A stretch of 64,000 bases of DNA, from the sequence record OV876900. One strand, 5' to 3'. Positions 2,977 through 54,518 of this stretch are shown here, piece by piece. How positions within the stretch are numbered: position 1 is the stretch's first letter; each line of letters begins with the position of its first letter. Both the position numbers and the translations under genes were made by a program. The notes beneath the pieces were generated by a model. It ran no database searches, was not told where the DNA came from, and saw only the letters and a program-made list of their open reading frames with translations. This DNA comes from Escherichia phage UGKSEcP2.

Positions 2977-6117
<3,141 letters not shown>

Positions 6118-6145: not shown

Positions 6146-8125
6146 ATGACTTTATTATCTCCGGGCATTGAGCTCAAAGAAACTACGGTTCAAAGCACCG
6201 TGGTTAATAACTCTACTGGTACAGCAGCTTTGGCCGGTAAATTCCAGTGGGGTCCTGCTTTTCAAATTAAACAGGTTACAAATGAAGTAGATTTAGTTAA
6301 TACTTTTGGTCAACCTACAGCTGAAACTGCTGACTATTTTATGTCTGCAATGAATTTCTTACAATACGGAAATGATTTGCGAGTTGTGCGTGCTGTCGAT
6401 AGAGATACCGCTAAAAACTCATCTCCGATTGCCGGTAATATTGAATACACTATTTCTACCCCAGGTAGTAACTACGTGGTTGGAGATAAAATCACGGTTA
6501 AGTATGTTTCAGAAGATGTTGAAACAGAATGTAAAGTTACCGAAGTAGATGCTGATGGAAAAATTAAGAAAATTAATATTCCCACCGCAAAAATTATCGC
6601 TAAAGCAAAAGAAGTAGGCGAATATCCAGCATTAGGTTCTAATTGGACCGCGGAAATTTCTTCGTCTTCCTCTGGTTTAGCTGCAGTAATAACTCTTGGA
6701 AAAATTATTACTGATTCTGGTATTTTATTAGCTGAAATTGAAAATGCCGAAGCTGCTATGACAGCTGTTGACTTTCAGGCAAATCTCGAAAAATATGGAA
6801 TTCCTGGAGTAGTAGCTCTTTATCCAGGCGAGTTGGGCGATAAAATCGAAATTGAAATCGTATCTAAAGCTGACTACGCAAAAGGTGCTTCTGCATTACT
6901 TCCAATTTATCCAGGTGGCGGAACACGCGCATCTACTGCTAAAGCGGTGTTTGGATATGGACCGCAAACTGATTCACAATACGCTATCATAGTTCGTCGC
7001 AATGATGCTATTGTTCAAAGCGTTGTTCTTTCAACGAAGCGTGGTGAAAAAGATATTTACGATAGTAACATCTATATTGATGACTTTTTCGCAAAAGGTG
7101 GTTCAGAATATATTTTCGCAACTGCGCAAAACTGGCCAGAAGGCTTCTCTGGAATTTTAACTCTGTCTGGTGGATTATCATCAAATGCTGAAGTAACAGC
7201 AGGAGATTTGATGGAAGCTTGGGACTTCTTTGCTGACCGCGAATCTGTTGACGTTCAGTTGTTTATTGCGGGTTCTTGTGCCGGTGAATCTTTAGAAACA
7301 GCATCTACTGTCCAAAAACACGTCGTTTCAATTGGAGATGCTCGCCAAGATTGCTTAGTATTGTGCTCACCACCGCGTGAAACTGTTGTTGGAATTCCTG
7401 TAACTCGTGCTGTTGATAACTTAGTCAATTGGAGAACCGCATCAGGTTCATACACTGATAATAACTTTAATATCAGTTCAACCTACGCAGCAATTGATGG
7501 TAACTACAAGTATCAGTATGACAAATATAATGATGTAAATCGTTGGGTTCCATTAGCAGCTGACATTGCTGGTTTATGCGCGAGAACTGATAACGTTTCT
7601 CAGACTTGGATGTCTCCAGCTGGTTATAATCGTGGCCAGATTCTTAACGTTATTAAACTTGCTATTGAAACTCGCCAAGCTCAGCGCGACCGTTTATATC
7701 AAGAAGCTATCAACCCAGTAACTGGTACAGGTGGTGATGGTTACGTATTATATGGTGATAAAACAGCTACTTCTGTTCCTTCTCCATTTGATCGTATTAA
7801 CGTTCGTCGTCTGTTTAATATGTTGAAAACGAATATCGGACGTAGTTCAAAATATCGTTTGTTCGAATTAAACAACGCGTTTACTCGTTCATCGTTCCGC
7901 ACAGAAACTGCCCAATACTTACAGGGAATTAAAGCTCTCGGTGGAATTTATGAATATCGTGTAGTTTGCGATACAACAAATAACACTCCGTCAGTAATTG
8001 ATAGAAATGAGTTTGTTGCAACATTCTACATTCAACCGGCTAGAAGCATTAACTACATTACCTTAAACTTCGTAGCAACTGCTACTGGTGCAGATTTCGA
8101 TGAGTTAACTGGTCTTGCAGGTTAA
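6146..8125 (+). CDS. 18: tail sheath protein gp18
   Basis: 659 aa, T4 gp18 length; late promoter TATAAATA just upstream. Confidence 0.95.
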   Translation: MTLLSPGIELKETTVQSTVVNNSTGTAALAGKFQWGPAFQIKQVTNEVDLVNTFGQPTAETADYFMSAMNFLQYGNDLRVVRAVDRDTAKNSSPIAGNIEYTISTPGSNYVVGDKITVKYVSEDVETECKVTEVDADGKIKKINIPTAKIIAKAKEVGEYPALGSNWTAEISSSSSGLAAVITLGKIITDSGILLAEIENAEAAMTAVDFQANLEKYGIPGVVALYPGELGDKIEIEIVSKADYAKGASALLPIYPGGGTRASTAKAVFGYGPQTDSQYAIIVRRNDAIVQSVVLSTKRGEKDIYDSNIYIDDFFAKGGSEYIFATAQNWPEGFSGILTLSGGLSSNAEVTAGDLMEAWDFFADRESVDVQLFIAGSCAGESLETASTVQKHVVSIGDARQDCLVLCSPPRETVVGIPVTRAVDNLVNWRTASGSYTDNNFNISSTYAAIDGNYKYQYDKYNDVNRWVPLAADIAGLCARTDNVSQTWMSPAGYNRGQILNVIKLAIETRQAQRDRLYQEAINPVTGTGGDGYVLYGDKTATSVPSPFDRINVRRLFNMLKTNIGRSSKYRLFELNNAFTRSSFRTETAQYLQGIKALGGIYEYRVVCDTTNNTPSVIDRNEFVATFYIQPARSINYITLNFVATATGADFDELTGLAG

Positions 8126-38803: not shown

Positions 38804-39022
38804 TTATGCTTTCTGCTTACCAAAACGAGAAGCATCATCTCGAAGAACCGCACGTGCTCGGCGCATGATCTTCTCAACAGTTTGATTGATACGAGAGTTC
38901 GACCCACGCTTGTAACCAGCGCGTTTAGAATCACCAACTTTCTTTTCAACTGCTTTCTTTGCTTTAGCTTGTTTTGCCATTATAAATTCTCTTTTAAATG
39001 AAAATGCAGGACTTATTGGCAT
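38804..39022 (-). CDS. small highly basic protein (58-72 aa depending on start)
   Basis: Lys/Arg-rich; alternative ATG at 38980 gives MAKQAKAKKAVEKK...; terminator hairpin directly downstream. Confidence 0.5.
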   Translation of the reverse strand: MPISPAFSFKREFIMAKQAKAKKAVEKKVGDSKRAGYKRGSNSRINQTVEKIMRRARAVLRDDASRFGKQKA

Positions 39023-39100
39023 TGCCTGCGCAAGCCCTCAAGGGGAACATAGGTTTTTGAATATTTAACGACCAGGATAACCATAAACCCGTCATCATAC

Positions 39101-39349
39101 TTACTTCAGTGTTACCACAAAATGACGAACTGCTTTTCGTGCAGCAGAAGCCAGTGGCTTAGCATATTTAAGTTCATCTTTTTCCTGAAGCTCAGCAGCT
39201 AATGCAGTTTGAGCAGGATTTAGATGTTTGAAATAACGCAGGATTTCAAGAGCTTCGGCTTCAACATCAATAGATGCGCCATAGTTTTCGTGACCATTAT
39301 TCCATGCGTTTCGTTGCAGTTCAAGAGCGTGTTGTAATTGTTTAATCAT
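39101..39349 (-). CDS. rIII: rIII lysis inhibition accessory protein
   Basis: 82 aa, T4 rIII length; position next to gene 31. Confidence 0.8.
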   Translation of the reverse strand: MIKQLQHALELQRNAWNNGHENYGASIDVEAEALEILRYFKHLNPAQTALAAELQEKDELKYAKPLASAARKAVRHFVVTLK

Positions 39350-39496
39350 TTAAAAATTCTCGTTAGAGATTAAAACTCGGTAGTCACGTTCTTCTGAATT
39401 TCATCTTCTTTCGACAGATCTCTCAGTTGTAGACTACCACATAGAATTGTTCGGTTAACTTATTATTCCGACACCCAATTCATATTATTATTTATA

Positions 39497-39832
39497 TCAC
39501 TTATAAAGACACGGAATAGCTTTATAGTGACAGGTAACGAATTTTTGTTTAATTTCTTTTGGCTGCTTAAGACCCAGAGCTACAAAAGGATGCGGAACGT
39601 TTCGAATTTGACCAACTGGAAGAGAAGTCAAATCACCAACTTCGCAGAAACCTTCAGGAACATCAGGACCAACGGAGTGAACTACACACAGTTCAGGAAC
39701 TTCACCTTGAACACGTTTACCGATAATAAGTCCTGATTCTGTAACTTCTTCATCACCGGCTTGTGCAGGTTCAGAAACTAAAATAACATATTCACCGACA
39801 GCACGAATTGGTAGCTGTTGTACTTCAGACAT
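39497..39832 (-). CDS. 31: co-chaperonin gp31 (GroES analogue)
   Basis: 111 aa, T4 gp31 length; N-terminus [19 protein letters not shown]. Confidence 0.92.
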
Positions 39833-39888
39833 CGTTTTTCCTTTTTGTTAACAGATGAATTAATAATAACAAATAATTCTTAAAGCAT

Positions 39889-40197
39889 TTATTTACCAAT
39901 AAATTGAAGCAAATGCTCAGCTTTCATACCATTAACGGAAATCAATTTGTCAATAGAAAAACCTCGCCATGCACCAAGCTCAACATCAAATACTGGAATC
40001 ATATCAGTAGATTCTTTCCGAGCAGATTCAGTCAATTTACCAGTTTGCATGGTTGGCATAAAGTCCGCATCACGAGTGCCTTTCATAGTACGAATAGTAC
40101 CATCAGACTTTTCAAAAACTACGTTTGAAATCCCCATGGACAATTTAGTTTTCAAAATTTCACGAATTGCTACTTTTTGTTCAGTCGTTAGTTTCAT
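39889..40197 (-). CDS. hypothetical protein (position of T4 31.1)
   Basis: 102 aa ATG ORF. Confidence 0.6.
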   Translation of the reverse strand: MKLTTEQKVAIREILKTKLSMGISNVVFEKSDGTIRTMKGTRDADFMPTMQTGKLTESARKESTDMIPVFDVELGAWRGFSIDKLISVNGMKAEHLLQFIGK

Positions 40198-40434
40198 TTA
40201 TTTACCTATTACAGTTTTAATATGGGTTGTTCCACGTTCTTTAAGAGTGGAAAGCAATTTTTGGCATTTTTCTAAATCAGATTTCCAACTATACGGCCTA
40301 TCAATACTAGTCCAATCAGTTTTATAATACTGTTTCCATTTAGAGAAAAAATACTTCTTATACTCTACAGCAAATGAAATGTTCTCATTAGAATAAGAAC
40401 TAATTGCTGTGAGCTGTACCAAACGAAATTTCAT
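40198..40434 (-). CDS. hypothetical protein (position of T4 31.2)
   Basis: 78 aa ATG ORF; start overlaps cd stop. Confidence 0.6.
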   Translation of the reverse strand: MKFRLVQLTAISSYSNENISFAVEYKKYFFSKWKQYYKTDWTSIDRPYSWKSDLEKCQKLLSTLKERGTTHIKTVIGK

Positions 40435-41015
40435 TATTCACCACAGAATTCGTTGATGTTTTCCCAGTTTAACTTATTCAAGTTTTTCTTAGGAACATTA
40501 AACACTTCAATACCTGCATTTCGCAGAATATCATCCCAGCCAGGTTTATTTTTATCGTATGTTTCGCAATAAACCAGCTTTTTAATACCAGATTGAGCTA
40601 TCGCTTTTGCACAATCTGGGCAAGGAGAAAGTGTTACATACATAGTAGCACCTTCAATTGAAGAACCGTTTCGTGCAGCAAACAAAATCGCATTTAGTTC
40701 AGCATGAATTTCATTTTTAGACGACCATTCAGAGTGCGCGCTACGGTGTTCTTTCGCCAAGACAAAACGATCAGTTGAACCAAATGATACGCATTCAGGC
40801 TTATGACCTTGAATGATAGTATGTTTAGGCTTATTCAGCAACCAACCTTGCTCAGCAGCATAATCACAGCAATTCACACCACCTGCAGGTGAACCATTAT
40901 ATCCGGTAGAAATAATACGTCCATTCTTTTCAATTACTGCTCCTACCTTCCAGGAGCAACATTTTGATTCTTGCGATACTAAATATGCAATTTGAAGTAC
41001 TGTACTCGCTTTCAT
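40434..41015 (-). CDS. cd: dCMP deaminase
   Basis: 193 aa; zinc-binding HAE and PCxxC deaminase motifs (HAELNAILF, SPCPDCAKAI). Confidence 0.93.
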   Translation of the reverse strand: MKASTVLQIAYLVSQESKCCSWKVGAVIEKNGRIISTGYNGSPAGGVNCCDYAAEQGWLLNKPKHTIIQGHKPECVSFGSTDRFVLAKEHRSAHSEWSSKNEIHAELNAILFAARNGSSIEGATMYVTLSPCPDCAKAIAQSGIKKLVYCETYDKNKPGWDDILRNAGIEVFNVPKKNLNKLNWENINEFCGE

Positions 41016-41350
41016 TTCATAATCACCAAATAAGCAGATTTAGCAGTTTCAACACGATAAATTTCGTGACGAAGTTTAGTTATACTTTTAATAACAGAAC
41101 TAATTATATTCTGCCCATCTTTAAAGCGGTTTTTCTTATCAATAAAAATTGCGCCAACCATCTTTTTGTGAAGCTCAACTGGATACTTCGTCACAATAAT
41201 AGCATCATACACAGAAGGATGAATACTATTCACTAGAGTGTCATTCATTAAAGTTATTCTAATAAACTGTGCTGTTTCAGAGTCAAGCGCTCTATGATCG
41301 CCAGTATCATTTTCAAGACAATTATCAATTATATCAGTTAAATTCATCAT
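41012..41350 (-). CDS. hypothetical protein, 112 aa
   Basis: ATG ORF, ATGA-type coupling. Confidence 0.55.
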   Translation of the reverse strand: MMNLTDIIDNCLENDTGDHRALDSETAQFIRITLMNDTLVNSIHPSVYDAIIVTKYPVELHKKMVGAIFIDKKNRFKDGQNIISSVIKSITKLRHEIYRVETAKSAYLVIMK

Positions 41351-41583
41351 AGTACGCCATACACCCTTTGTGCTTCAACTAATCCATCAAAATCCAATTT
41401 GAGATGTGTTATTTGGTCACCATCACCTGGATTCACAATTACTAATACTGAACGAGGAGTTTCGGTAATAACGCGAACCGATGTTTCTGGAAATCGTTCA
41501 GAAACCTTATTTACCAATTCCTGAGCAAATAGTTTAACTTTTTCTTGGAATTCTTTAACAGTAATTGGTTTTTCACTTAGCAT
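41347..41583 (-). CDS. hypothetical protein, 78 aa
   Basis: ATG ORF, coupled. Confidence 0.55.
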   Translation of the reverse strand: MLSEKPITVKEFQEKVKLFAQELVNKVSERFPETSVRVITETPRSVLVIVNPGDGDQITHLKLDFDGLVEAQRVYGVL

Positions 41584-42107
41584 GTTGATCCCAGCTCCTT
41601 ACTTTCAACGTTTTTAACTAATTTAACAGAAACTAATTCAGCATCTTGTGTAATCATTACCGGGCCTTCTTCATACTCTTCAAGATATTCTAGAGCTTTC
41701 TTTTTAGCTTCTTCCTTCGTATCAGTTTGAGCATAGATATAAAACATGCAACCACCAGTAATACCTACTACTTTCCACTTAATTTCTTTATCAGTTTTAA
41801 TTTCAAATTTACTGACAGAATCATCTTTTTGAACTTCTTCGAAAAAAGAATATTCTAACATATAAGCAATTGAAAATAACGGGCTAACTTTATAAGATTC
41901 GCCCATTACATCAACAGCTTTATACCAGCGGTCATCAATTTCGCGTTTAATGCTAATAACATTTTTCGCAGGATCTATTTTTACTTTAAATGAATTTTCC
42001 CCAATAAACTGGGCAATTCGTTTATTAGCACCACAGGTTTCATTAAAAATATCTTTATATCCAGCTTTAAAGCGATAAACCTTATCTTCTTCAAACCATT
42101 CGCTCAT
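41577..42107 (-). CDS. hypothetical protein, 176 aa
   Basis: ATG ORF downstream of early promoter with stem-loop. Confidence 0.55.
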   Translation of the reverse strand: MSEWFEEDKVYRFKAGYKDIFNETCGANKRIAQFIGENSFKVKIDPAKNVISIKREIDDRWYKAVDVMGESYKVSPLFSIAYMLEYSFFEEVQKDDSVSKFEIKTDKEIKWKVVGITGGCMFYIYAQTDTKEEAKKKALEYLEEYEEGPVMITQDAELVSVKLVKNVESKELGSTC

Positions 42108-42127
42108 TTCAATTTCCTCATTTGTTT

Positions 42128-42166
42128 TGGTAGAGCTATAATATCACAACTCTACCGTAAAGTAAA
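42128..42166 (-). promoter_or_regulatory. early promoter with stem-loop (PeSL-like)
   Basis: GTTTAC-N18-TATTAT; inverted repeat ggtagag / ctctacc flanks the -10. Confidence 0.5.
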
Positions 42167-42169
42167 CTA

Positions 42170-42445
42170 TTAAAATGCTTTGAATTCTGATGTCTGCGAT
42201 TCAAAGCAAATATCGCCTTTGATGACTAGCTCAGCATCAAGACCAAATACGACAATGATATGCGCAGAACCTGGATACAACGTAATGGCAATAGAATCCA
42301 CCTGGTCTGGAAGCAAAGTGTTCAATACATGAGTCACTTGAGCATGAATTCGAAGCTCGGCAGCGTTATCAAGCTTTTCAAACATATTATTAGCAATAAT
42401 TTGGCTAAACACTACTTCTACGATTTTAGAATAAGTCGGAAACAT
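42170..42445 (-). CDS. hypothetical protein, 91 aa
   Basis: ATG ORF. Confidence 0.55.
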   Translation of the reverse strand: MFPTYSKIVEVVFSQIIANNMFEKLDNAAELRIHAQVTHVLNTLLPDQVDSIAITLYPGSAHIIVVFGLDAELVIKGDICFESQTSEFKAF

Positions 42446-42447
42446 AT

Positions 42448-42648
42448 TTACCTCACATAATTTTCTTCAAGCCAATCAATAACATCCAACGCATTATCAA
42501 AAGTTGAACCATCTACTTTGTCTTCTGTTTCATAATCAAGAACATCTAAGCCTACTCTTCCATCAACAATAGGCCATAAACAAAATAGATATTTCTTTTC
42601 TTTTTCAATTTTATCACAAAGCCGATAAATCTTTTCTATGTTATTCAT
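42448..42648 (-). CDS. hypothetical protein, 66 aa
   Basis: ATG ORF. Confidence 0.5.
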   Translation of the reverse strand: MNNIEKIYRLCDKIEKEKKYLFCLWPIVDGRVGLDVLDYETEDKVDGSTFDNALDVIDWLEENYVR

Positions 42649-42834
42649 AAGTTTTCCATGGTAAAGGCAGTTTAGTTTTCTTTACTGTTAGTTCAACATC
42701 AGGATTCTTTTCTCTTAATTTAAGGCATTCCTCCCAAGCTCTGATTTCACTAGTGAATACACAAAATTGCCCATTACTAGTACCAACTAAACCGCTATTT
42801 ACAATAATAGCCCAAGTTTCATGATGCCACGCCA

Positions 42835-42835
<1 letters not shown>
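42641..42835 (-). CDS. hypothetical protein, about 64 aa
   Basis: Track ORF runs to 42865, overlapping pseT by 30 nt; internal ATG at 42835 forms TAATG coupling with pseT stop, so shorter form preferred. Confidence 0.45.
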
Positions 42836-44060
<1,225 letters not shown>

Positions 44061-44063
44061 TTA

Positions 44064-44288
44064 TTATTTCTCAACCAATGATTGAATATAATCATGTAAG
44101 TCTTTAGATGCTTTACCCCACTTATTTTGGTATTCATTTTTAAGATTAGCACGAGATTGAGCTAATAAAACATCATTAGTTGGAGGTAAAGATTCTAACC
44201 GCTGAATCTGGCGTCCGTAAATCATTGCAGCCATCTCGGATTCATAAATCAATCCTTTGAGATGTTCAAATTGATGCCATGAAATCAT
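44064..44288 (-). CDS. hypothetical protein, 74 aa
   Basis: ATG ORF. Confidence 0.5.
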   Translation of the reverse strand: MISWHQFEHLKGLIYESEMAAMIYGRQIQRLESLPPTNDVLLAQSRANLKNEYQNKWGKASKDLHDYIQSLVEK

Positions 44289-44584
44289 TTACATTTATCC
44301 TCTTTTAACTCTTGACGATAATAACATATCATAGTTTTCTGATCATGTACATATCGTTTTACATCATTAAGCCAAATACGAAATTCCTGGGAATCTTCGA
44401 ATGGCATACCGACCCAAGCTTTACCATCAATAACTTTAACTTGCCAAGATAGTTTAGCTTCATCGTATGACTTTATTTGTACAGGCCAATTAGGATGAAC
44501 TGTTTCTTTCTTTACTTCTAGAGGCTTTGTCGAACAACCAACTAGAATACCAATAGATAATATTACTGCTGATAGTTTAATCAT
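44285..44584 (-). CDS. outer-membrane spanin lipoprotein (o-spanin; T4 pseT.2-like)
   Basis: 99 aa; signal peptide with lipobox LVGC (MIKLSAVILSIGILVGCS); start overlaps end of i-spanin. Confidence 0.7.
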   Translation of the reverse strand: MIKLSAVILSIGILVGCSTKPLEVKKETVHPNWPVQIKSYDEAKLSWQVKVIDGKAWVGMPFEDSQEFRIWLNDVKRYVHDQKTMICYYRQELKEDKCK

Positions 44585-44934
44585 TTAGAAAGGTCCTGGA
44601 TGTCTTCTGCGAACTTGTTGAAGGAGTTGTTGATTTGTTTTTCAACCAATCCTGGCTTATGAGCCACCACATCCGCCTTCTTTGCGTCTTTGCGCAGTTT
44701 TTCATTTTCACGCTCAATAGCAGCAATTGCCTCACGATTTTTATTATTCATCGCATCAATATAATTATACTGAATTCGCAAATTATTTAATGCTAAAGCG
44801 TTTTCATTGGCCGTTTTTGTAATTTCTATAACAGACGTTTCTAATCTTTCAATTTTATTTTTTAAAATTAAAGAAGTTCCGCCCAATGCAATTACAATTA
44901 ATAACAAGCCTGTTGTCGTATTACTTAATTGCAT
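44581..44934 (-). CDS. inner-membrane spanin (i-spanin; T4 pseT.3-like)
   Basis: 117 aa; N-terminal transmembrane helix TTGLLLIVIALGGTSLIL followed by coiled-coil. Confidence 0.7.
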   Translation of the reverse strand: MQLSNTTTGLLLIVIALGGTSLILKNKIERLETSVIEITKTANENALALNNLRIQYNYIDAMNNKNREAIAAIERENEKLRKDAKKADVVAHKPGLVEKQINNSFNKFAEDIQDLSK

Positions 44935-45428
44935 AAAGTTTTAATAACCTCTATAATATCGTCTTGAGAAAGACCGTTAATTAAAATATGATGTTCAGCC
45001 GGAGATTTAGAAATTTTAAAGCATGCCTCAACATCTTCTGCCATATCTGATGCGCTACGATTTGGATTACTAATTCCAAGACGATGTTTTCCCGTTAAAG
45101 GATTAACGATGATATAGCATTTACAGTTGTTAATATGAACATTAGGTTGAGTCTGATTAATGAACACATCACAATCATATTTCGCAAGCTGATTTTCTAA
45201 AAAGACTTTCATCTCCTCAACCGCATCAGGAAGCATATCACGGGCTTGCTCAAGACGACGATTTCGATATTCTTTAATGGTCGTTTTCCGCTTGACTTGC
45301 TTAGCTAAATCTTTCTTAAGATCGGTGATATATCCAACTCGACGATTTCCTTTAAATACAGAAATCCCATCTGTAGTATCACCGTATGCTTCAACGACCA
45401 TCTCAGTAGTAATAAGCTGCAAATCCAT
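44925..45428 (-). CDS. alc: Alc, inhibitor of host transcription on cytosine DNA
   Basis: 167 aa, T4 Alc length; position between spanins and rnlA; early promoter upstream. Confidence 0.8.
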   Translation of the reverse strand: MDLQLITTEMVVEAYGDTTDGISVFKGNRRVGYITDLKKDLAKQVKRKTTIKEYRNRRLEQARDMLPDAVEEMKVFLENQLAKYDCDVFINQTQPNVHINNCKCYIIVNPLTGKHRLGISNPNRSASDMAEDVEACFKISKSPAEHHILINGLSQDDIIEVIKTLCN

Positions 45429-45436
45429 TATAAAGT

Positions 45437-45489
45437 CCTCATGTTATGTCAGTAAGATTACTATAACACAGCACGAGGGACTTGTAAAC
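45437..45489 (-). repeat. 53-bp early promoter/leader cassette, copy 2
   Basis: Near-identical to 29921..29973; lies between rnlA stop and alc start. Confidence 0.8.
45460..45489 (-). promoter_or_regulatory. T4-type early promoter upstream of alc
   Basis: Minus-strand GTTTAC-N18-TATAGT. Confidence 0.55.
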
Positions 45490-45492
45490 AGC

Positions 45493-47080
<1,588 letters not shown>

Positions 47081-47107
47081 AATAAAATGGGCCTTGCGGC
47101 CCACTCC
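47081..47107 (-). promoter_or_regulatory. structured translation initiation region of denA: hairpin between Shine-Dalgarno and AUG
   Basis: mRNA uaaGGAGu-GGGCCGCAAGGCCC-auuuuauu-AUG; the hairpin would shorten a 23-nt SD-AUG spacing to about 9 nt. Confidence 0.5.
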
Positions 47108-48286
47108 TTAAAAATATTTTTTAAAACTCATCATAACTTTATCATCAACATCATTATCAATCTGTGCTACAAGATAAGATGACAGTTCTACTTCTTGTGG
47201 CGCGGATTGAACATTATCAGAATTAAGATATTCACGAATCCAAGGATACGGATGTTTAACCGGAGCATCGGTAATTGGGCATGGAAGACCACACTGTTTC
47301 ATACGAGATACAGTTAAGTAATCAATAAAGTTCCACATGCTATTTGTATTTAATCCAGGAACATCGCCATCTTTAAATAAATGAACTGCCCAGTCTTTTT
47401 CTTGACGGTTAACTTCCATGAAAATATCAACTGCTTCTTGTTCACACTCTTGGGCGATTTTAACCCATTCATCACCATCAGTGCCAAGTTGAAGTTGACG
47501 AATAATATATTGGGTGCCTTTAAGGTGAAGCTGCTCATCACGTGCAATGAACTTCATAATCTTGGCATTACCTTCCATGATTTCCATGTTCTTATGGAAG
47601 TTAAAGGTACATGCGAAAGATACATAAAAACGAATAGCTTCCAATGCGTTGATTACATGCAGACAAAGGTAAAGAGAACGCATTAGTTCGTATTTGCATT
47701 CTTCTACATGCATAAGGCTATTTGAATATGCGTCCAAATCATATTCATTCTCTGAAAAACACCTAAAAATTTCTTTTGCGTTTTCCCATTCACGAGTTTT
47801 CTCAATAACATCATCATAATAACGACCAATAGATTCAGCACGTTTCATGATAGCTTTATCTAATACAATCTCATCAAATACCTTTGACGGATCAGTATAA
47901 AGATTTCGCATGATATGAGTATATGAACGACTGTGAATAGTTTCGCTAAAAGTCCATGTAGCAACCCATGTATCAAGGCTTGGATCTGAAATTAATGACA
48001 TAAGTACAGCAGACGGTGCACGACCCTGAATGCTATCCAAAAGTGATTGATACTTCAGGTTATTAGTAAAAATATCTTGCTGATACTGGGGAAGCTTGTT
48101 AAATTGTGCAGCATCCATCATCAAGTTTACTTCTTCAGGACGCCAGAAAAATGACAACTGCTTTTCGGTTAAATCTTCAAAAACTTTATGACGTTGAATA
48201 TCATAACGCGCAATACCAAGACCTGAACCGAAGAACATAGGTTCTTTTAAAACATCAACTGGATTTGTATTAAAAACTGTGCTCAT
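47108..48286 (-). CDS. nrdB: ribonucleotide reductase small subunit
   Basis: 392 aa continuous ORF (no intron); di-iron ligand regions. Confidence 0.95.
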   Translation of the reverse strand: MSTVFNTNPVDVLKEPMFFGSGLGIARYDIQRHKVFEDLTEKQLSFFWRPEEVNLMMDAAQFNKLPQYQQDIFTNNLKYQSLLDSIQGRAPSAVLMSLISDPSLDTWVATWTFSETIHSRSYTHIMRNLYTDPSKVFDEIVLDKAIMKRAESIGRYYDDVIEKTREWENAKEIFRCFSENEYDLDAYSNSLMHVEECKYELMRSLYLCLHVINALEAIRFYVSFACTFNFHKNMEIMEGNAKIMKFIARDEQLHLKGTQYIIRQLQLGTDGDEWVKIAQECEQEAVDIFMEVNRQEKDWAVHLFKDGDVPGLNTNSMWNFIDYLTVSRMKQCGLPCPITDAPVKHPYPWIREYLNSDNVQSAPQEVELSSYLVAQIDNDVDDKVMMSFKKYF

Positions 48287-48337
48287 AAATTTTCCGCTTA
48301 GTTAATAGATAGTGACTCGTCCGTGAGTCAAATTATA

Positions 48338-50602
48338 TCATAATTTACAGGATGAACAATCTTCAGCTTTTGGAGTTTCTATTTCATAATCATCAGTACC
48401 AGAACCGTCACGGGTATTATGATAATAGAAATTTTTTCCGCCAAAATACCAAAAATACAAAAGGTCATCAATCATTATTGACATTGGAACCTTTCCTTTT
48501 GGAAAAATCTGCGGGTCATAATATGTATTCGCTGAAGCTGATTGACACACCCATTTCAGCATAATAGCTACTTGCGTAAGATAAGGTTTATTGCCTTTCT
48601 TAGCTAATTTCCATGTATAATCATAGAGGTCTATGTTGTGCTCAATATTGGGCACGACTTGATTAAAGGAGCCCTCTTTTGATTCTTTAACAGAGACTGG
48701 TCCACGTGGAGGCTCGATACCGTTTGTACTGTTAGAAACTTGGGAAGATGACTCACATGGCATAAGTGCTGATAATGTGCTATTACGGATGCCAAAGAGC
48801 TTAAGGTCTTCCCGCAGCGACGACCAGTCACAAACGTATTTTGGAGCTGCGATTTGGTCAATCTTTTTATTGTACCAGTCGATAGGTAATTCGCCTCGAG
48901 ACCAACGAGTGTCTGAATAATATTCGCAAGGTCCTTTTTCTTTGGCGAGCTTAATGGATGCTTTAATGAGTCCATACTGTAGTCTCTCAAATAGTTCATG
49001 TGTTAAATCGTTAGCATCTTCATAAGAAGCAAAATTACTTGCCAGCCAAGCTGCATAGTTAGTAACACCTACGCCAAGGTTTCGACGTTTTTTAGCTTTT
49101 TCTGCTTCAGGAACTGGATATCCTTGGTAATCCAAAAGATTATCAAGAGCACGAACTTGGACTTCTGCCAATTCATTAATTTTATCTTGGTCTTGCCAAT
49201 CGAAGTTATCTAACACAAATGCAGATAACGTACACAATCCAATTTCAGCATCAGGACTATTCACATCATTTGTTGGAATAGCAATTTCACAACACAAGTT
49301 GCTCTGACGAATAGGTGCCTTTTCACGAATAAACGGAGTATAGTTATTCGTATTATCAATGAACTGTACATAAATCCTTGCTGTTCCTGAGCGTTCAGTC
49401 ATGAGCAATTCAAACAGTTCACGGGCTTTAATACGCTTTTTACGAATATTAGGGTCTTTTTCTGCAGCTTCGTATAATTCACGGAAACGGTCTTGGTCTT
49501 TAAAATAAGAATAGTAAAGTTCGCCACCCATTTCATGCGGACTGAACAAAGTAATGTAATCATTCTTTCCAAATCGTTCCATCATCAAATCATTCAGCTG
49601 GACGCCATAATCCATATGACGGATACGGTTTTCTTCTACACCTTTGTTATTTTTCAAAACGAGAAGATTTTCAACTTCCAAATGCCAAATAGGATAATAA
49701 GCAGTAGCAGCGCCGCCACGAATTCCACCCTGTGAGCATGATTTAACAGCAGTTTGAAAATGTTTCCAAAAAGGAATAACACCAGTATGACGTACTTCAC
49801 CTGTGCCAATCTTAGAACCTTCGGCACGAATCATACCAACGTTAATACCAATTCCAGCGCGTTTGGAGATATATTCAACAATTGAAGCGGAAGCCTTATT
49901 GATAGACTTTAATGAATCACCTGCCTCAATAACAACGCATGAACTAAACTGCCGAGTTGGAGTACGGCAACCGGCCATAATAGGAGTTGGCAGTGAAATC
50001 TGTCGAGTAGATACTGCTTCATAAAAACGAATAACATGTTTTAATCTATCAACAGGTTCATCTTGATGCAATGCCATTCCAATAGTCATAAATGCAAACT
50101 GTGGAGTTTCATAAATTTGACCAGTGGTTTTATCTTTAACTAGATATTTTTCTTTTAATTGCATCGCCCCGGAATAAGTAAATTCCATATCCCGTTCGTG
50201 CTTAATTTTTGATTCTAAAAATGTAATTTCTTCTGCTGAATATTTTGACAACAATTCAGGGTCGTATTTACCTTCATTTACACAGTAAGAAATATGGTCA
50301 ATAAATGAACGTGGTTCATACTGCCCGTAAACATGCTTACGAAGAGCGAACATTAAGCAGCGTGCAGCTACATATTGATAATCAGGCTCTTCAACTGAAA
50401 TAGAATTCGCAGCAGCCTTAATTACAATGGTTTGAATGTCATCAGTTGTCATTCCATCACGGAGATATGATTTAATATTTTCATATAATTCATAAGGATC
50501 TACAGATGTTCCTTCAGCTGCCCAAGATAAAACTTTAATAATTTTTTGTGGGTCAAAGCTCTGAGAAACACCACTACTTTTGATAACATTAATTAATTGC
50601 AT
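48338..50602 (-). CDS. nrdA: ribonucleotide reductase large subunit
   Basis: 754 aa, T4 NrdA length. Confidence 0.95.
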   Translation of the reverse strand: MQLINVIKSSGVSQSFDPQKIIKVLSWAAEGTSVDPYELYENIKSYLRDGMTTDDIQTIVIKAAANSISVEEPDYQYVAARCLMFALRKHVYGQYEPRSFIDHISYCVNEGKYDPELLSKYSAEEITFLESKIKHERDMEFTYSGAMQLKEKYLVKDKTTGQIYETPQFAFMTIGMALHQDEPVDRLKHVIRFYEAVSTRQISLPTPIMAGCRTPTRQFSSCVVIEAGDSLKSINKASASIVEYISKRAGIGINVGMIRAEGSKIGTGEVRHTGVIPFWKHFQTAVKSCSQGGIRGGAATAYYPIWHLEVENLLVLKNNKGVEENRIRHMDYGVQLNDLMMERFGKNDYITLFSPHEMGGELYYSYFKDQDRFRELYEAAEKDPNIRKKRIKARELFELLMTERSGTARIYVQFIDNTNNYTPFIREKAPIRQSNLCCEIAIPTNDVNSPDAEIGLCTLSAFVLDNFDWQDQDKINELAEVQVRALDNLLDYQGYPVPEAEKAKKRRNLGVGVTNYAAWLASNFASYEDANDLTHELFERLQYGLIKASIKLAKEKGPCEYYSDTRWSRGELPIDWYNKKIDQIAAPKYVCDWSSLREDLKLFGIRNSTLSALMPCESSSQVSNSTNGIEPPRGPVSVKESKEGSFNQVVPNIEHNIDLYDYTWKLAKKGNKPYLTQVAIMLKWVCQSASANTYYDPQIFPKGKVPMSIMIDDLLYFWYFGGKNFYYHNTRDGSGTDDYEIETPKAEDCSSCKL

Positions 50603-50919
50603 AAGTCCTCAACTTGAAAATCGTCTTTAAACAATCGGTTAACTATATGAGCTATTATATCACCATGACACGGCTTTGGTTTACATGTGCATCCTAGCCT
50701 CATTCCACGTAAAGGCTCTAAATGTGCTTTAGTTATTTCTCCGGATTTAATTCGACGTATAAAATCTTTTTTGAATAATTCAATGGCAGCCTCCCGGCTG
50801 CCAGCATCTTTACCGACGTAATTTCCCCAAAATGTACCACGGTGAATATTAACATCAAAGTCGGATTTATATTTATTCACTACCTGGCATAGACGGCCCG
50901 CGCGGTGATAATTCGTCAT
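50593..50919 (-). CDS. hypothetical Cys/His-containing protein, 108 aa (position of T4 nrdA.1)
   Basis: ATG ORF; motif [13 protein letters not shown]. Confidence 0.55.
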
Positions 50920-51136
50920 ATTGTTTTTCCGTTAAAACAGTAATATCATAATAACAGTCAGAAGAAGTTTTAACTGTGGAAATTTTATTATCAAAATACT
51001 CACGAGTCATTTTATGAGTATAATATTTTTTGCCATAAATGATAATAGGCTGATTTGGTCCTGGAACTTCTAACTCGCTTGGATTAGGAAGTGTAAAAAG
51101 AACTACACCAGAAGTATCCTTAAATCGTAAAATCAT
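50873..51136 (-). CDS. hypothetical protein, about 87 aa (position of T4 nrdA.2)
   Basis: Track start is TTG at 51148; ATG at 51136 with GAGGA; 3' end overlaps next ORF by 47 nt. Confidence 0.5.
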
Positions 51137-51159
51137 ATATCCTCTCAATTAAATTAAAA

Positions 51160-52019
51160 TTACACCGCCATCTTTCCTTTAATTGGCGGGTGAGATACAT
51201 AGTTGTTAAGAACAAAATTATGCGGCTTTGCGAATTGACTCAACCAAAATACCTGCGATTCTGTGTCCCATTCATCAAATTCATCTGGAAATTTTAATTG
51301 TAATTCGCATAAATCCATAGGTTCACGACGCAAAATTTCTTTACATTGTTCTACGTGATTCATATAGATATGAGTATTACCACCAGAAAATATCAAATCT
51401 CCAGGAATAAGTTTACACATCTTAGCTACAATATGAACTAACGTAGCATATGATGCAATATTAAATGGAAGACCGAGGAAAACATCTACCGAACGTTGAT
51501 ACCACTGCAAATCCAAATAGCCATTACGCACATTAAATTGATAGAACATATGACAAGGTGGTAATGCCATTTGCTTGAGTTCAGCTGGATTCCATGCTGA
51601 AACAATTTGACGTCTATCATTTGGCAGTTTTTTAATACGATCAACAACTTCTATAATTTGGTCTACACCACCAAAATCACGCCACTGTTTTCCATAAATT
51701 GGACCAAGTTCACCACTATGGTATCCTAAATCTTTTGCTTGATTTTCGTAATTTTCATCCCAGACTGTTTTGCCTTGAATTAATGAATCATGTTGAATTA
51801 ATCGCAAATCATTGACATTTGTGCTTCCCGATAAAAACCATATTAGCTCAGCAATGCAAGCTTTCCAGGCAAGCTTCTTAGTCGTTACTGCAGGAAAACC
51901 TTTAGTTAAATCCCAGCGTAATTTAGTACCGAACAAAGCAATTGTTCCTGTGCCTGTTCGGTCATCGGTTTCATAACCGTTTTCCAGGATATCTTTAATT
52001 AAAAATTGGTATTGTTTCA

Positions 52020-52020
<1 letters not shown>
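51160..52020 (-). CDS. td: thymidylate synthase
   Basis: 286 aa from ATG (MKQYQ...); track start is TTG at 52032; continuous ORF, no intron. Confidence 0.95.
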
Positions 52021-53049
<1,029 letters not shown>

Positions 53050-53057
53050 ATTATCTC

Positions 53058-53393
53058 CTAATATAAAGGATCGGGAACATATCCACTGGCTTTAATCATT
53101 TTGATTAACGTTAGCAGTCCTTTATTAACTGCTTGTGAGATTTCATTAAAAACTTCATCACTAAAAAGTTCTAACACTCCCTTCTGAACTTTTAATTTAC
53201 AACCAACAATTTCATCATCGCCTATAGTAAATTCGTTTCCGCCAATTCCACCGAAAAACTTAATTACACCAGTTAACTGTGTTCCACGAGAATATGGGTC
53301 GTGTGATAAAGTAATATGAGTCACCCCAGGTACAGTTTTAAATTGGCAGCGAATGTTTACTTGGGAAATTCCAGTTACATGAATGTCAGACAT
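53058..53393 (-). CDS. hypothetical protein, 111 aa
   Basis: ATG ORF. Confidence 0.55.
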   Translation of the reverse strand: MSDIHVTGISQVNIRCQFKTVPGVTHITLSHDPYSRGTQLTGVIKFFGGIGGNEFTIGDDEIVGCKLKVQKGVLELFSDEVFNEISQAVNKGLLTLIKMIKASGYVPDPLY

Positions 53394-53403
53394 AATATTT
53401 TCC

Positions 53404-53646
53404 TCAAACAGACTTTTTCACAATTTTCCAATCAGCTTTAAACTGATCAACGTCAGAATGGTAAATCCAGAATCCTGCGCTTTCTCCATCCTCATAAAGA
53501 GGGCATCCATCGCATTCATCTTCCCATCCCATATCACGCAAAAGATGTTCAGCTTTTTCAACAAGTTCAGAATCTTTACCGATGATATTAAAATACCATT
53601 TACCTCTAACTTCTGAATCTTTAATGCTCTGACGTTGTAATCTCAT
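53404..53646 (-). CDS. hypothetical protein, 80 aa
   Basis: ATG ORF with GGAG upstream. Confidence 0.55.
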   Translation of the reverse strand: MRLQRQSIKDSEVRGKWYFNIIGKDSELVEKAEHLLRDMGWEDECDGCPLYEDGESAGFWIYHSDVDQFKADWKIVKKSV

Positions 53647-53749
53647 TTTATTCTCCTTAGCAAGCTTTAATCAAAAGGTATAAGCAAACTAACATAACTG
53701 CTGCCATAATATAAGGTGCGAACATTTTCTTTTCTCCATTAGTTTTGAT

Positions 53750-53785
53750 AGGGTAATAGTATCACACTACTACCCTTCTGTAAAC
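53750..53785 (-). promoter_or_regulatory. early promoter (GTTTAC-N18-TACTAT)
   Basis: Motif match; short inverted repeat agggta / taccct around the -10. Confidence 0.45.
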
Positions 53786-54171
53786 TACTTTTTGAAAGTT
53801 TTTCGCAAAAGTTCAATGATTTCATCTACATTGTTTTCGTCAACAATGCAGTGAATTTTTGTCACGCCAGAAACTATACCTTCATTAGCGGATTGAGGCT
53901 TTTCTAAAGTTACCTCAGTAAAGTATTTGAATTCTTCAGAGTAAATCTCAAAATACGTCTCAAGTGGGCCACCTGCCATGTATTCAGTGCCATCTTCCAT
54001 AGTTACACGTACCACACATTCACCAGCGTAATCATCACTTTCCATTTCATCTACAACAAAACTAGGCCCGTGCTTCTCTATTAAATTTAGCATCATTACA
54101 TTGCAACAGCACTCGTTAGCAAAGTCATTTTTAAATAAAGGGTTAATGATATAAGTTTTTCCAACTTCCAT
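53785..54171 (-). CDS. hypothetical protein, 128 aa
   Basis: ATG ORF. Confidence 0.55.
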   Translation of the reverse strand: MEVGKTYIINPLFKNDFANECCCNVMMLNLIEKHGPSFVVDEMESDDYAGECVVRVTMEDGTEYMAGGPLETYFEIYSEEFKYFTEVTLEKPQSANEGIVSGVTKIHCIVDENNVDEIIELLRKTFKK

Positions 54172-54488: not shown

Positions 54489-54518
54489 ATAGTACCACAG
54501 AAGAACAGGGGTGTAAAC
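54489..54518 (-). promoter_or_regulatory. early promoter (GTTTAC-N18-TACTAT)
   Basis: Motif match upstream of 75-aa ORF. Confidence 0.45.

Follow-up and report, generated by a model that had tools for sequence, protein, structure and literature searches.

The interval from position 41012 to 42835 of the window (the whole stretch of 64,000 nucleotides from Escherichia phage UGKSEcP2, sequence record OV876900) very probably represents the cd-pseT segment of a Tequatrovirus genome, in which orthologues of the T4 genes cd.1 to cd.5 are accompanied by an optional gene for a 176-residue protein of the GoF/Frd.2 family with a candidate role at the level of RNA. The region is already known as a hyperplastic one, in which T4-like phages carry small, non-essential early genes, and what is added here is a single, modest family assignment that is new. 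The DNA is 98.7% identical to that of Tequatrovirus genomes, and six genes, all on the minus strand, were located in the interval, encoding proteins of 112, 78, 176, 91, 66 and 64 amino acids. These correspond to the orthologues of cd.1 (41012-41350) and cd.2 (41347-41583), a 176-aa accessory gene of the RB32ORF214c type (41577-42107), and the orthologues of cd.3 (42170-42445), cd.4 (42448-42648) and cd.5 (42641-42835), while the sole intergenic gap in the block, 62 nt at 42108-42169, holds a promoter-hairpin cassette of the PeSL type on the same strand. The junctions across the block comprise ATGA, ATGCTAA and TAATG motifs, an 8-nt overlap and a 2-nt spacer: ATGA overlaps join cd.1 both to cd.2 and to cd, the ATG of cd.2 overlaps the stop codon of the 176-aa gene in ATGCTAA, cd.4 and the stop codon of cd.5 overlap by 8 nt, and the stop codon of pseT overlaps the ATG of cd.5 in TAATG. 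The six tightly coupled minus-strand ORFs of a preliminary description of this DNA were upheld by their coordinates, overlaps, dN/dS values and tblastn matches.

As judged from their pattern of sequence conservation, all six ORFs are genuine protein-coding genes. Long ORFs are frequent in AT-rich DNA, and as the DNA of this interval is AT-rich and several of the ORFs are short (64-91 aa), some of the small ones could be regarded as chance reading frames rather than genes. However, dN/dS was far below 1 in six of six (0.00-0.25 in the closer comparisons), protein identity of 30-45% is kept between genera, start and stop codons are tightly coupled with Shine-Dalgarno motifs present, and the T4 orthologues have been seen by mass spectrometry. 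Searches of 50,697 phage records with tblastn gave 614 matches for cd.1, 926 for cd.2, 302 for the 176-aa gene, 895 for cd.3, 689 for cd.4 and 509 for cd.5. Chance reading frames were rejected on the grounds of this conservation and of the T4 proteomics, their probability being considered negligible.

The assignment of five of the genes as orthologues of cd.1 to cd.5 is based on their location between cd and pseT in the same gene order as in T4, and on high identity to the T4 proteins combined with shared Pfam and PHROG families. Amino acid identity to T4 was 97-98% for the five; identity and dN/dS were 98% and 0.15 for cd.1, 97% and 0.04 for cd.3, 97% and 0.11 for cd.4, 97% and 0.09 for cd.5, and a dN/dS of 0.10-0.16 for cd.2. 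The preliminary description had found no recognisable motifs in these ORFs, a statement that does not hold for four of them, as cd.2 matches the Pfam family PF24005 (DUF7320) at 3.4e-34, cd.3 matches PF24051 (DUF7355) at 4.9e-32 and cd.5 matches PF25744 (T4_Y13H) at 1.8e-30, and the 176-aa ORF has relatives in GoF/Frd.2. The PHROG families of the five cd.x orthologues are phrog_2063 (cd.1), phrog_1504, phrog_1695, phrog_2360 (cd.4, at 8e-42) and phrog_2430. The T4_Y13H match covers residues 12-71 of a mechanically called cd.5 ORF of 74 aa, which begins 30 nt upstream of the ATG used for the 64-aa protein. The T4 reference NC_000866 was found to carry one extra G at the start of cd.2, and owing to this the annotated cd.2 start in that record is probably wrong. 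In T4, cd.1 to cd.5 are transcribed as early RNA and all have been detected as protein, cd.2 specifically as early RNA and early protein (PMC9697503 supplement), and the T4 record annotates the five as 'hypothetical'. A literature search by cd.x, Pfam and UniProt names did not retrieve a functional study of any cd.x gene. PDB sequence searches with single cd.1 and with profiles of cd.1, cd.2 and cd.3 returned chance-level matches only, and the AF2 model of cd.1 was unreliable (pLDDT 49).

Among the 23 loci compared, cd.2 and cd.3 were present in all, with cd.3 always directly upstream of cd.2, and cd.1 was present in 21, while cd.4, cd.5 and the 176-aa gene were each absent from about half or more; a narrower cd.2 alignment recovered 11 related loci. 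Because they are always adjacent, cd.2 and cd.3 probably work together. The proteins of cd.1 to cd.5 are small, soluble and mostly acidic, cd.4 having a pI of 4.35, and some related genera lack homologues of them; our best guess is that they bind host or phage partners and are not enzymes. For cd.2 in particular, a DinI-like function, in which the protein would modulate RecA or UvsX filaments, has been implied by the label 'putative DinI' in GenBank record MZ502379, and a weak Pfam DinI match was indeed obtained at residues 16-48 (E 0.048, 14.4 bits). This score, however, falls short of the 24.2 bits set as the family cut-off, and comparison by hhalign of a profile of 19 cd.2 homologues with E. 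coli DinI (a sequence that matched Pfam DinI at 2.1e-29) gave a probability of 0.6%. Moreover, a 9-sequence cd.2 profile did not find a DinI chain in the PDB at E-values up to 10, and the first strand and the acidic C-terminal helix of DinI seem, from the sequence, to be missing from cd.2. With a sub-threshold Pfam score, an hhalign probability of this order and a PDB search devoid of DinI, the label is unsupported and not worth propagating, and a DinI-like role for cd.2 is very unlikely.

The preliminary description had also noted an internal stem-loop early promoter, and this proved to be real. The promoter, GTTTACT-N17-TATTAT, has its -35 element at 42167-42161 and its -10 element at 42143-42138, the latter being enclosed by a 12-bp hairpin (42129-42156), and is followed by a Shine-Dalgarno sequence, GAGG, at 42119-42116 and then by an ATG. 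A stretch of 86 nt folds at -20.2 kcal/mol (z = -3.6), with 1 in 200 shuffled sequences being equally stable. The PeSL consensus, TTTACW-N17-TAYWAT combined with a stem-loop and adjoining indels (Arbiol et al. 2010, PMC2839356; Comeau et al. 2014, PMC4122927), is represented here by TTTACT-N17-TATTAT at 42138-42166; the window contains five matches to this promoter pattern, each of them on the minus strand, as compared to 0.4 expected. The cassette recurs unchanged in T4, annotated as Pe133295 in the record, and four genus-level relatives conserve its -35, -10, Shine-Dalgarno and ATG elements. The hairpin was kept in four of five relatives, with 86.7% of pairs retained and three pairs changed on both sides, a covariation that is not significant in these 5 sequences, the observed level of pairing being attained by 35 of 500 shuffles. 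As the hairpin is not followed by a U-tract it does not represent a canonical intrinsic terminator, and a search of 39000-45500 against Rfam did not find an RNA family.

From the anatomy of the block, a long early transcript originating upstream of pseT would read through all of its genes, with translation being handed from gene to gene where start codons overlap stop codons. Transcription would be restarted ahead of the 176-aa gene, cd.2, cd.1 and cd by the promoter at 42138-42167; a strict early-promoter match was absent between 42167 and 53756. A transcript starting some 7 nt past the -10 element would begin within the 3′ arm of the hairpin, in which case the whole hairpin would be carried only by read-through RNA from upstream, which it could attenuate or stabilise by analogy with what has been reported for PeSL cassettes.

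The slot of the 176-aa gene is bounded precisely by the internal early promoter on one side and cd.2 on the other. Approximately 61% of Tequatrovirus genomes carry the gene (phrog_3710); T4 lacks it, and relative to T4 it constitutes a 531-bp indel that begins at the ATG behind the cassette and whose boundaries run exactly from start codon to start codon. PeSL cassettes are known to mark indel hot spots (PMC4122927, PMC2839356); as only a single cassette is present at this slot, recombination between two PeSLs alone does not explain the indel. In the PaulHMueller variant an in-frame deletion of 270 bp removes the N-terminal domain of the protein, and diverged homologues of the gene occupy the equivalent slot in Gaprivervirus and Dhakavirus. 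These natural variants, which differ in having the gene, lacking it or having lost a domain of it, provide ready isogenic comparisons. When the 176-aa protein was used as query for HMMER against 1.84 billion representatives, near-identical fragments and one artefact were recovered and nothing else; the artefact, a perfect tandem-repeat protein of 1345 aa for which 17 weak repeat matches had been summed, was discarded.

The 176-aa gene bears the label 'putative homing endonuclease' in the BASEL-collection phages FriedrichZschokke and PaulHMueller, and the mobility of a free-standing homing endonuclease would explain its presence in some genomes and absence from others. The seg and mob genes of T4 are gene-sized indels, and the precise gene-sized indel between two conserved genes observed here would agree with such an origin. 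Searches of Pfam, NCBIfam and PHROGs, however, did not find an HNH, GIY-YIG or other nuclease family in the protein, a nuclease fold was not among its PDB matches, and HNH proteins appeared in BFVD only at probabilities of 0.3 or less. In addition, the N-terminal half is homologous to GoF/Frd.2, and the diverged homologues in the same slot of two other genera fit better with vertical descent and loss than with homing. With neither a nuclease motif nor a nuclease fold found, the label is largely refuted, and we hold it highly improbable that the gene encodes a homing endonuclease.

By profile comparison the 176-aa protein is instead a member of the GoF/ComC-alpha–Frd.2 family over its N-terminal ~100 residues (codons 1 to ~100, 41808-42107), which are followed by a linker and by a C-terminal domain (41580-41789). 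PHROG matches between the 176-aa family and GoF/Frd.2 run in both directions, with T4 GoF matching phrog_3710 at 8.1e-12 and the frd.2 gene of the window (53785-54171), a paralogue of the 176-aa gene, matching it at 2.1e-7. The link with frd.2 emerges only when PHROG profiles are used; plain HMMER within the window did not find paralogues of the six genes at a meaningful E-value. Comparison of the 176-aa family by hhalign gave a probability of 69.5% with GoF alone and 91.3% (E 9.5e-7, 98 columns) with GoF and Frd.2 combined. In the predicted structure, five strands at the N-terminus are connected to a C-terminal domain, itself a separate unit, by a linker of low confidence (pLDDT below 50 at residues 97-106), as fits a flexible-linker architecture, and the N-terminal part may adopt an LSm-like (SH3/FeoA-like) beta-barrel. 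The PDB neighbours of the model were FeoA and IdeR, while BFVD gave 21 matches at E-values of 1e-3 or below, all of them uncharacterised proteins from T4-like and other large myoviruses. The C-terminal domain is predicted to be beta-beta-alpha-beta-beta at residues 111-162 and is family-specific; relatives of it were not found in Pfam or PDB, and PDB sequence searches with the 176-aa protein alone and with a C-terminal-domain profile returned chance-level matches only.

The function of the GoF family is an old question of T4 biology, known as the rho(nusD)/comC-alpha problem. GoF (ComC-alpha), Frd.2 and MotB.1 have been described as early proteins of Tevenvirinae with an LSm-like fold, and stabilisation of a reporter RNA was observed only with the GoF D25Y mutant (Kim et al. 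2025, PMC12152347). By analogy, the 176-aa protein may act at a post-transcriptional level, on how stable phage early RNA is or how far it is extended, via RNA or an RNA-handling host protein, a role that we put forward tentatively as a reasonable possibility short of an even chance. The gene can now be assigned to the GoF/Frd.2 proteins of LSm-like fold, to which it adds an optional subfamily, and this filing replaces both 'hypothetical' and the mislabel 'homing endonuclease'.

On a further reading, the six proteins include at least one factor for anti-defence or host takeover, which would bind directly to, and thereby inhibit, a protein of host immunity or a housekeeping protein. Partial presence is a pattern typical of adaptive accessory genes, and the region varies between genera, with the 176-aa gene occurring in only part of the genus; furthermore, these are small early proteins, most of them acidic. 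Nevertheless, PADLOC and NCBIfam gave no matches for the six proteins, the Pfam families concerned are without function, and the 176-aa family and the T4 antitoxin Dmd were related by hhalign with a probability of just 0.07%. The occurrence of cd.2 and cd.3 in 23 of 23 loci and of cd.1 in 21 of 23 is more like that of genes with a housekeeping accessory role, and an experimental link of cd.x genes to a defence system was not found in the searchable literature. Overall we regard an anti-defence or host-takeover function as unlikely. The preliminary description had derived it from what such regions commonly carry, a prior expectation that the sequence does not show to apply here, and its ranking of the island as the likeliest site of undescribed functions overstates the novelty, as the same genes occur in ~500 relatives at 90% identity or more. 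It was correct in seeing here a variable region of a T-even genome with small early genes of no established function, given that five are 'hypothetical' in T4, the sixth is without a T4 orthologue and gene content varies. The interval carries little weight for discovery, its genes being found near-unchanged in hundreds of T4-like phages and five of them having been annotated in T4 for decades.

A more specific proposal, and in our estimation a distinctly improbable one, is that the 176-aa protein constitutes a two-part counter-defence factor, in which the LSm-like domain would engage RNA or an RNA-handling host factor and the C-terminal domain would block an RNA-targeting toxin or nuclease, in analogy to Dmd, which blocks RnlA and LsoA, or, more broadly, that cd.1 to cd.5 include one or more undescribed inhibitors of host systems. 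If counter-defence were true, the ~61% presence of the gene and the allele encoding only the C-terminal domain would reflect selection by hosts with the matching defence. For the 176-aa protein, Dmd is at most a lead, from a model of low confidence.

Among known systems, Dmd (PDB 5HY3 chain B) has no sequence relationship to the 176-aa protein. The closest counterpart of the block is T4 cd.1 to cd.5 (NC_000866 T4p218-T4p222; UniProt P32287, P39498-P39501), which is likewise flanked by cd and pseT and shares the internal early promoter; unlike T4, the window has one added gene between this promoter and cd.2, and its cd.5 is better read as 64 aa, as compared to the 75 aa annotated in T4. The added gene does not differ in substance from RB32ORF214c of phrog_3710, present in RB32, PST, RB5 and ~300 other Tequatrovirus genomes, with which it shares its position and 90-100% identity. 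The cassette resembles the PST/T4-type PeSL in its TTTACW-N17-TAYWAT promoter, the stem-loop overlapping the -10 element and the Shine-Dalgarno sequence and start codon at its 3′ end, and also in its location in a hyperplastic region adjoining an indel between close relatives. It differs from flanking PeSL pairs in being single, and A-U and G-U pairs abound in its stem, whereas the RB49 PeSL has G/C tracts. Similarly to GoF and Frd.2, the 176-aa protein is predicted to have a beta-barrel N-terminal domain that a flexible linker joins to a C-terminal domain of variable type, its model has FeoA and IdeR as PDB neighbours, and its gene, like those of the GoF family, is early and lies downstream of an early promoter. 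In contrast to GoF and Frd.2, which belong to phrog_622, its subfamily comprises phrog_3710 and phrog_5804, and unlike GoF it is not encoded by T4, is optional within the genus and possesses a C-terminal domain of its own.

The minus-strand gene order, which in annotated relatives and T4 runs pseT, cd.5, cd.4, cd.3, the optional RB32ORF214c, cd.2, cd.1, cd, 31.2, 31.1, 31 and rIII, coupled with the 98.7% identity of 40500-43500 to Escherichia phage vB_Eco_ZCEC15 and matches in 625 phage records, nearly all T4-like, placed 41012-42835 between cd and pseT in a Tequatrovirus genome. The six minus-strand ORFs listed in the preliminary description were all present where it had placed them: cd.1 (41012-41350, 112 aa), cd.2 (41347-41583, 78 aa), an RB32ORF214c-type gene (41577-42107, 176 aa), cd.3 (42170-42445, 91 aa), cd.4 (42448-42648, 66 aa) and cd.5 (42641-42835, 64 aa), the last read from an ATG overlapping the stop codon of pseT, which is also where the Pfam and PHROG profiles for cd.5 start. 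Junctions within the block comprise ATGA, ATGCTAA, TAATG, an 8-nt overlap and a 2-nt spacer, the sole gap being 42108-42169. All six ORFs are genuine genes, with dN/dS values of 0.04-0.15 against T4 for cd.1, cd.3, cd.4 and cd.5, 0.10-0.16 against other genera for cd.2, and 0.00-0.09 against close relatives for the 176-aa gene. A tblastn search of 50,697 phage records returned 614 for cd.1, 926 for cd.2, 302 for the 176-aa gene, 895 for cd.3, 689 for cd.4 and 509 for cd.5. In T4, all five of cd.1-cd.5 belong to the early RNA class and all five proteins have been detected, cd.2 early, cd.1, cd.3 and cd.4 in the middle period, and cd.5 late (PMC9697503 supplement). An Rfam scan of 39000-45500 identified no RNA family.

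The block is a known and widely sequenced hyperplastic segment. Comparison of 23 loci, from Tequatrovirus, Gaprivervirus, Dhakavirus, Karamvirus, Gelderlandvirus, Winklervirus, Kanagawavirus, Jiaodavirus, one Mosigvirus-like phage (LF82-1, so classed by our own reading as its record states no genus) and IMG/VR contigs, revealed a conserved cd.3-cd.2(-cd.1) core with variable edges: cd.2 and cd.3 were adjacent in all 23, while cd.1 was found in 21, cd.5 in 12, cd.4 in 11 and the 176-aa family in 5. A gene for DAHP synthase, of the aromatic amino-acid pathway, lies between cd and cd.2 in LF82-1 (4358-5350 of its locus), Serratia phage LC53 (4231-5247) and Edwardsiella phage PEi20 (4262-5257), two of these three loci lacking cd.1. 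In other genera ORFs of 71-74 aa, without counterpart in the window or T4, sit directly upstream of cd.3 (loci L005, 2602-2817; L006, 2654-2869; L007, 3276-3491; L008, 3266-3481; LF82-1, 3435-3659; PEi20, 3500-3715); the one in VR26 is labelled 'similar to VR7 gp234'. Between pseT and pseT.1 the window carries a 106-aa ORF (43740-44060, minus strand) of RB32ORF217c type (phrog_2364), which T4 lacks; it also occurs in the Gaprivervirus, Dhakavirus and LF82-1 loci, with remoter matches in Karamvirus-type loci, and is termed a 'putative homing endonuclease' in BASEL records, but the ORF matches no nuclease family.

The interpretation offered in the preliminary description holds in part, as the functions remain without assignment, while its suggestion of anti-defence genes found no direct support. 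No functional study of cd.1-cd.5 was found in the literature searched. None of these five has a clear membrane segment, the most hydrophobic 19-residue stretch of cd.3 being borderline (Kyte-Doolittle 1.73). Acidic proteins in the block are cd.3, cd.4 and the 176-aa product. Fold matches for cd.1 were set aside owing to an unreliable model (pLDDT 49). The 'putative DinI' label given to cd.2 in one record was rejected, as the Pfam match falls under threshold, the family profile matches DinI at a probability of 0.6%, and a PDB search retrieved no DinI chain. In the T4 reference NC_000866 one additional G stands near the start of cd.2 (GTTAAAGGAATTCC versus GTTAAAGAATTCC; 6241-6262 of the T4 locus, window 41550-41583), and consequently cd.2 is annotated there as 76 aa from a GTG. 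The independent T4 assembly OZ209023.1 lacks this G and encodes a 79-aa cd.2 from an ATG behind promoter and SD; the extra G is probably a reference error.

The internal stem-loop early promoter previously described was located in the 42108-42169 gap, where GTTTACT-N17-TATTAT is accompanied by a 12-bp hairpin (42129-42156) enclosing the -10 hexamer, followed 3' by GAGG and then the 176-aa gene's ATG. The 86-nt region has a folding energy of -20.2 kcal/mol (z = -3.6). In T4 the promoter-hairpin is identical, its promoter being annotated as the early promoter Pe133295, which lies between cd.2 and cd.3. The -35, -10, SD and ATG are all retained in the five genus-level sequences compared, where 86.7% of hairpin pairs are kept and three pairs are changed on both sides, a covariation short of significance with five sequences (35 of 500 shuffles equal it); in one relative the stem is placed elsewhere. 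Lacking a U-tract, the hairpin is not a classical terminator. A transcript starting some 7 nt past the -10 would begin in the 3' arm, so that the full hairpin would form only on read-through RNA from upstream. The window contains five copies of TTTACW-N17-TAYWAT (0.4 expected) and six of GTTTAC-N18-TAnnAT (0.29 expected), in both cases on the minus strand only. The latter sites (29944, 38721, 42138, 53756, 54489 and 57790) are, judging by motif, probably its T4-type early promoters; none lies within 42167-53756, and thus no promoter feeding pseT and cd.5-cd.3 was found.

The one new result concerns the optional 176-aa gene, which, contrary to the earlier statement that the ORFs lack recognisable motifs, can be assigned to the GoF/Frd.2 family. 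The protein matches goF PHROG families weakly, but the comparison in the other direction was clear: T4 GoF, a member of phrog_622, also matches two further families, phrog_3710 (8.1e-12), to which the 176-aa gene itself belongs, and phrog_5804 (1.6e-5). Window frd.2 (53785-54171, minus strand; Pfam FRD2, phrog_622) matches phrog_3710 at 2.1e-7 and is, by sequence comparison, a paralogue of the N-terminal domain; early-promoter motifs lie just downstream of frd.2 (53756-53785) and, at 54489-54518, upstream of the gene before it. Profile-profile comparison using a 45-sequence alignment gave a probability of 69.5% against GoF alone and 91.3% against GoF plus Frd.2 (E 9.5e-7, 98 columns). In members of this family an LSm-like (SH3/FeoA-like) fold at the N terminus is joined by a flexible linker to a C-terminal domain that varies, and the genes are non-essential with no established wild-type function, although GoF(D25Y) stabilises RNA with the gene 41 leader (Kim et al., PMC12152347). 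The AF2 model, though weak (pLDDT 59, pTM 0.50), has the same layout; no relatives of the protein's C-terminal domain were detectable, and the 21 BFVD matches at E <=1e-3 come from T4-like and other large myoviruses, none being a characterised protein. No nuclease family or fold backs the 'putative homing endonuclease' label in BASEL records. T4 grows defectively on rho(nusD) hosts, and suppressors of this defect map to GoF, proposed to be an antiterminator or RNA protector (PMC2988021). From this history we would guess that the 176-aa protein might act on early RNA.

All 302 records of the 176-aa gene are at >=90% identity, as compared to approximately 497 with cd.1 at that identity, placing it in some 61% of the genus. 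Word-indexed and exhaustive HMMER searches retrieved near-identical copies only, one further match being a tandem-repeat artefact. In PaulHMueller the gene (2483-2740 of its locus) has an in-frame 270-bp deletion of codons ~13-102, the LSm-like domain, bounded by two TTAAA(G/A)CTG repeats and leaving the C-terminal domain behind an unchanged promoter. A 114-aa metagenomic ORF (P0004, 644-bp contig), with a precomputed PF08993 match, carries residues 5-52 amid other sequence and is probably an assembly chimera or recombinant fragment. In Gaprivervirus VR26 and a Dhakavirus phage a distant homologue of 180-184 aa occupies the same slot, and a subsequent profile search gathered 50 proteins in three subfamilies. 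T4 differs from the window by a precise indel of the 176-aa gene, with promoter, SD and ATG common to both, and in T4 this ATG runs directly into cd.2; the homologues in the equivalent slot make it more likely that the gene is old and was lost in T4 than that it was recently inserted.
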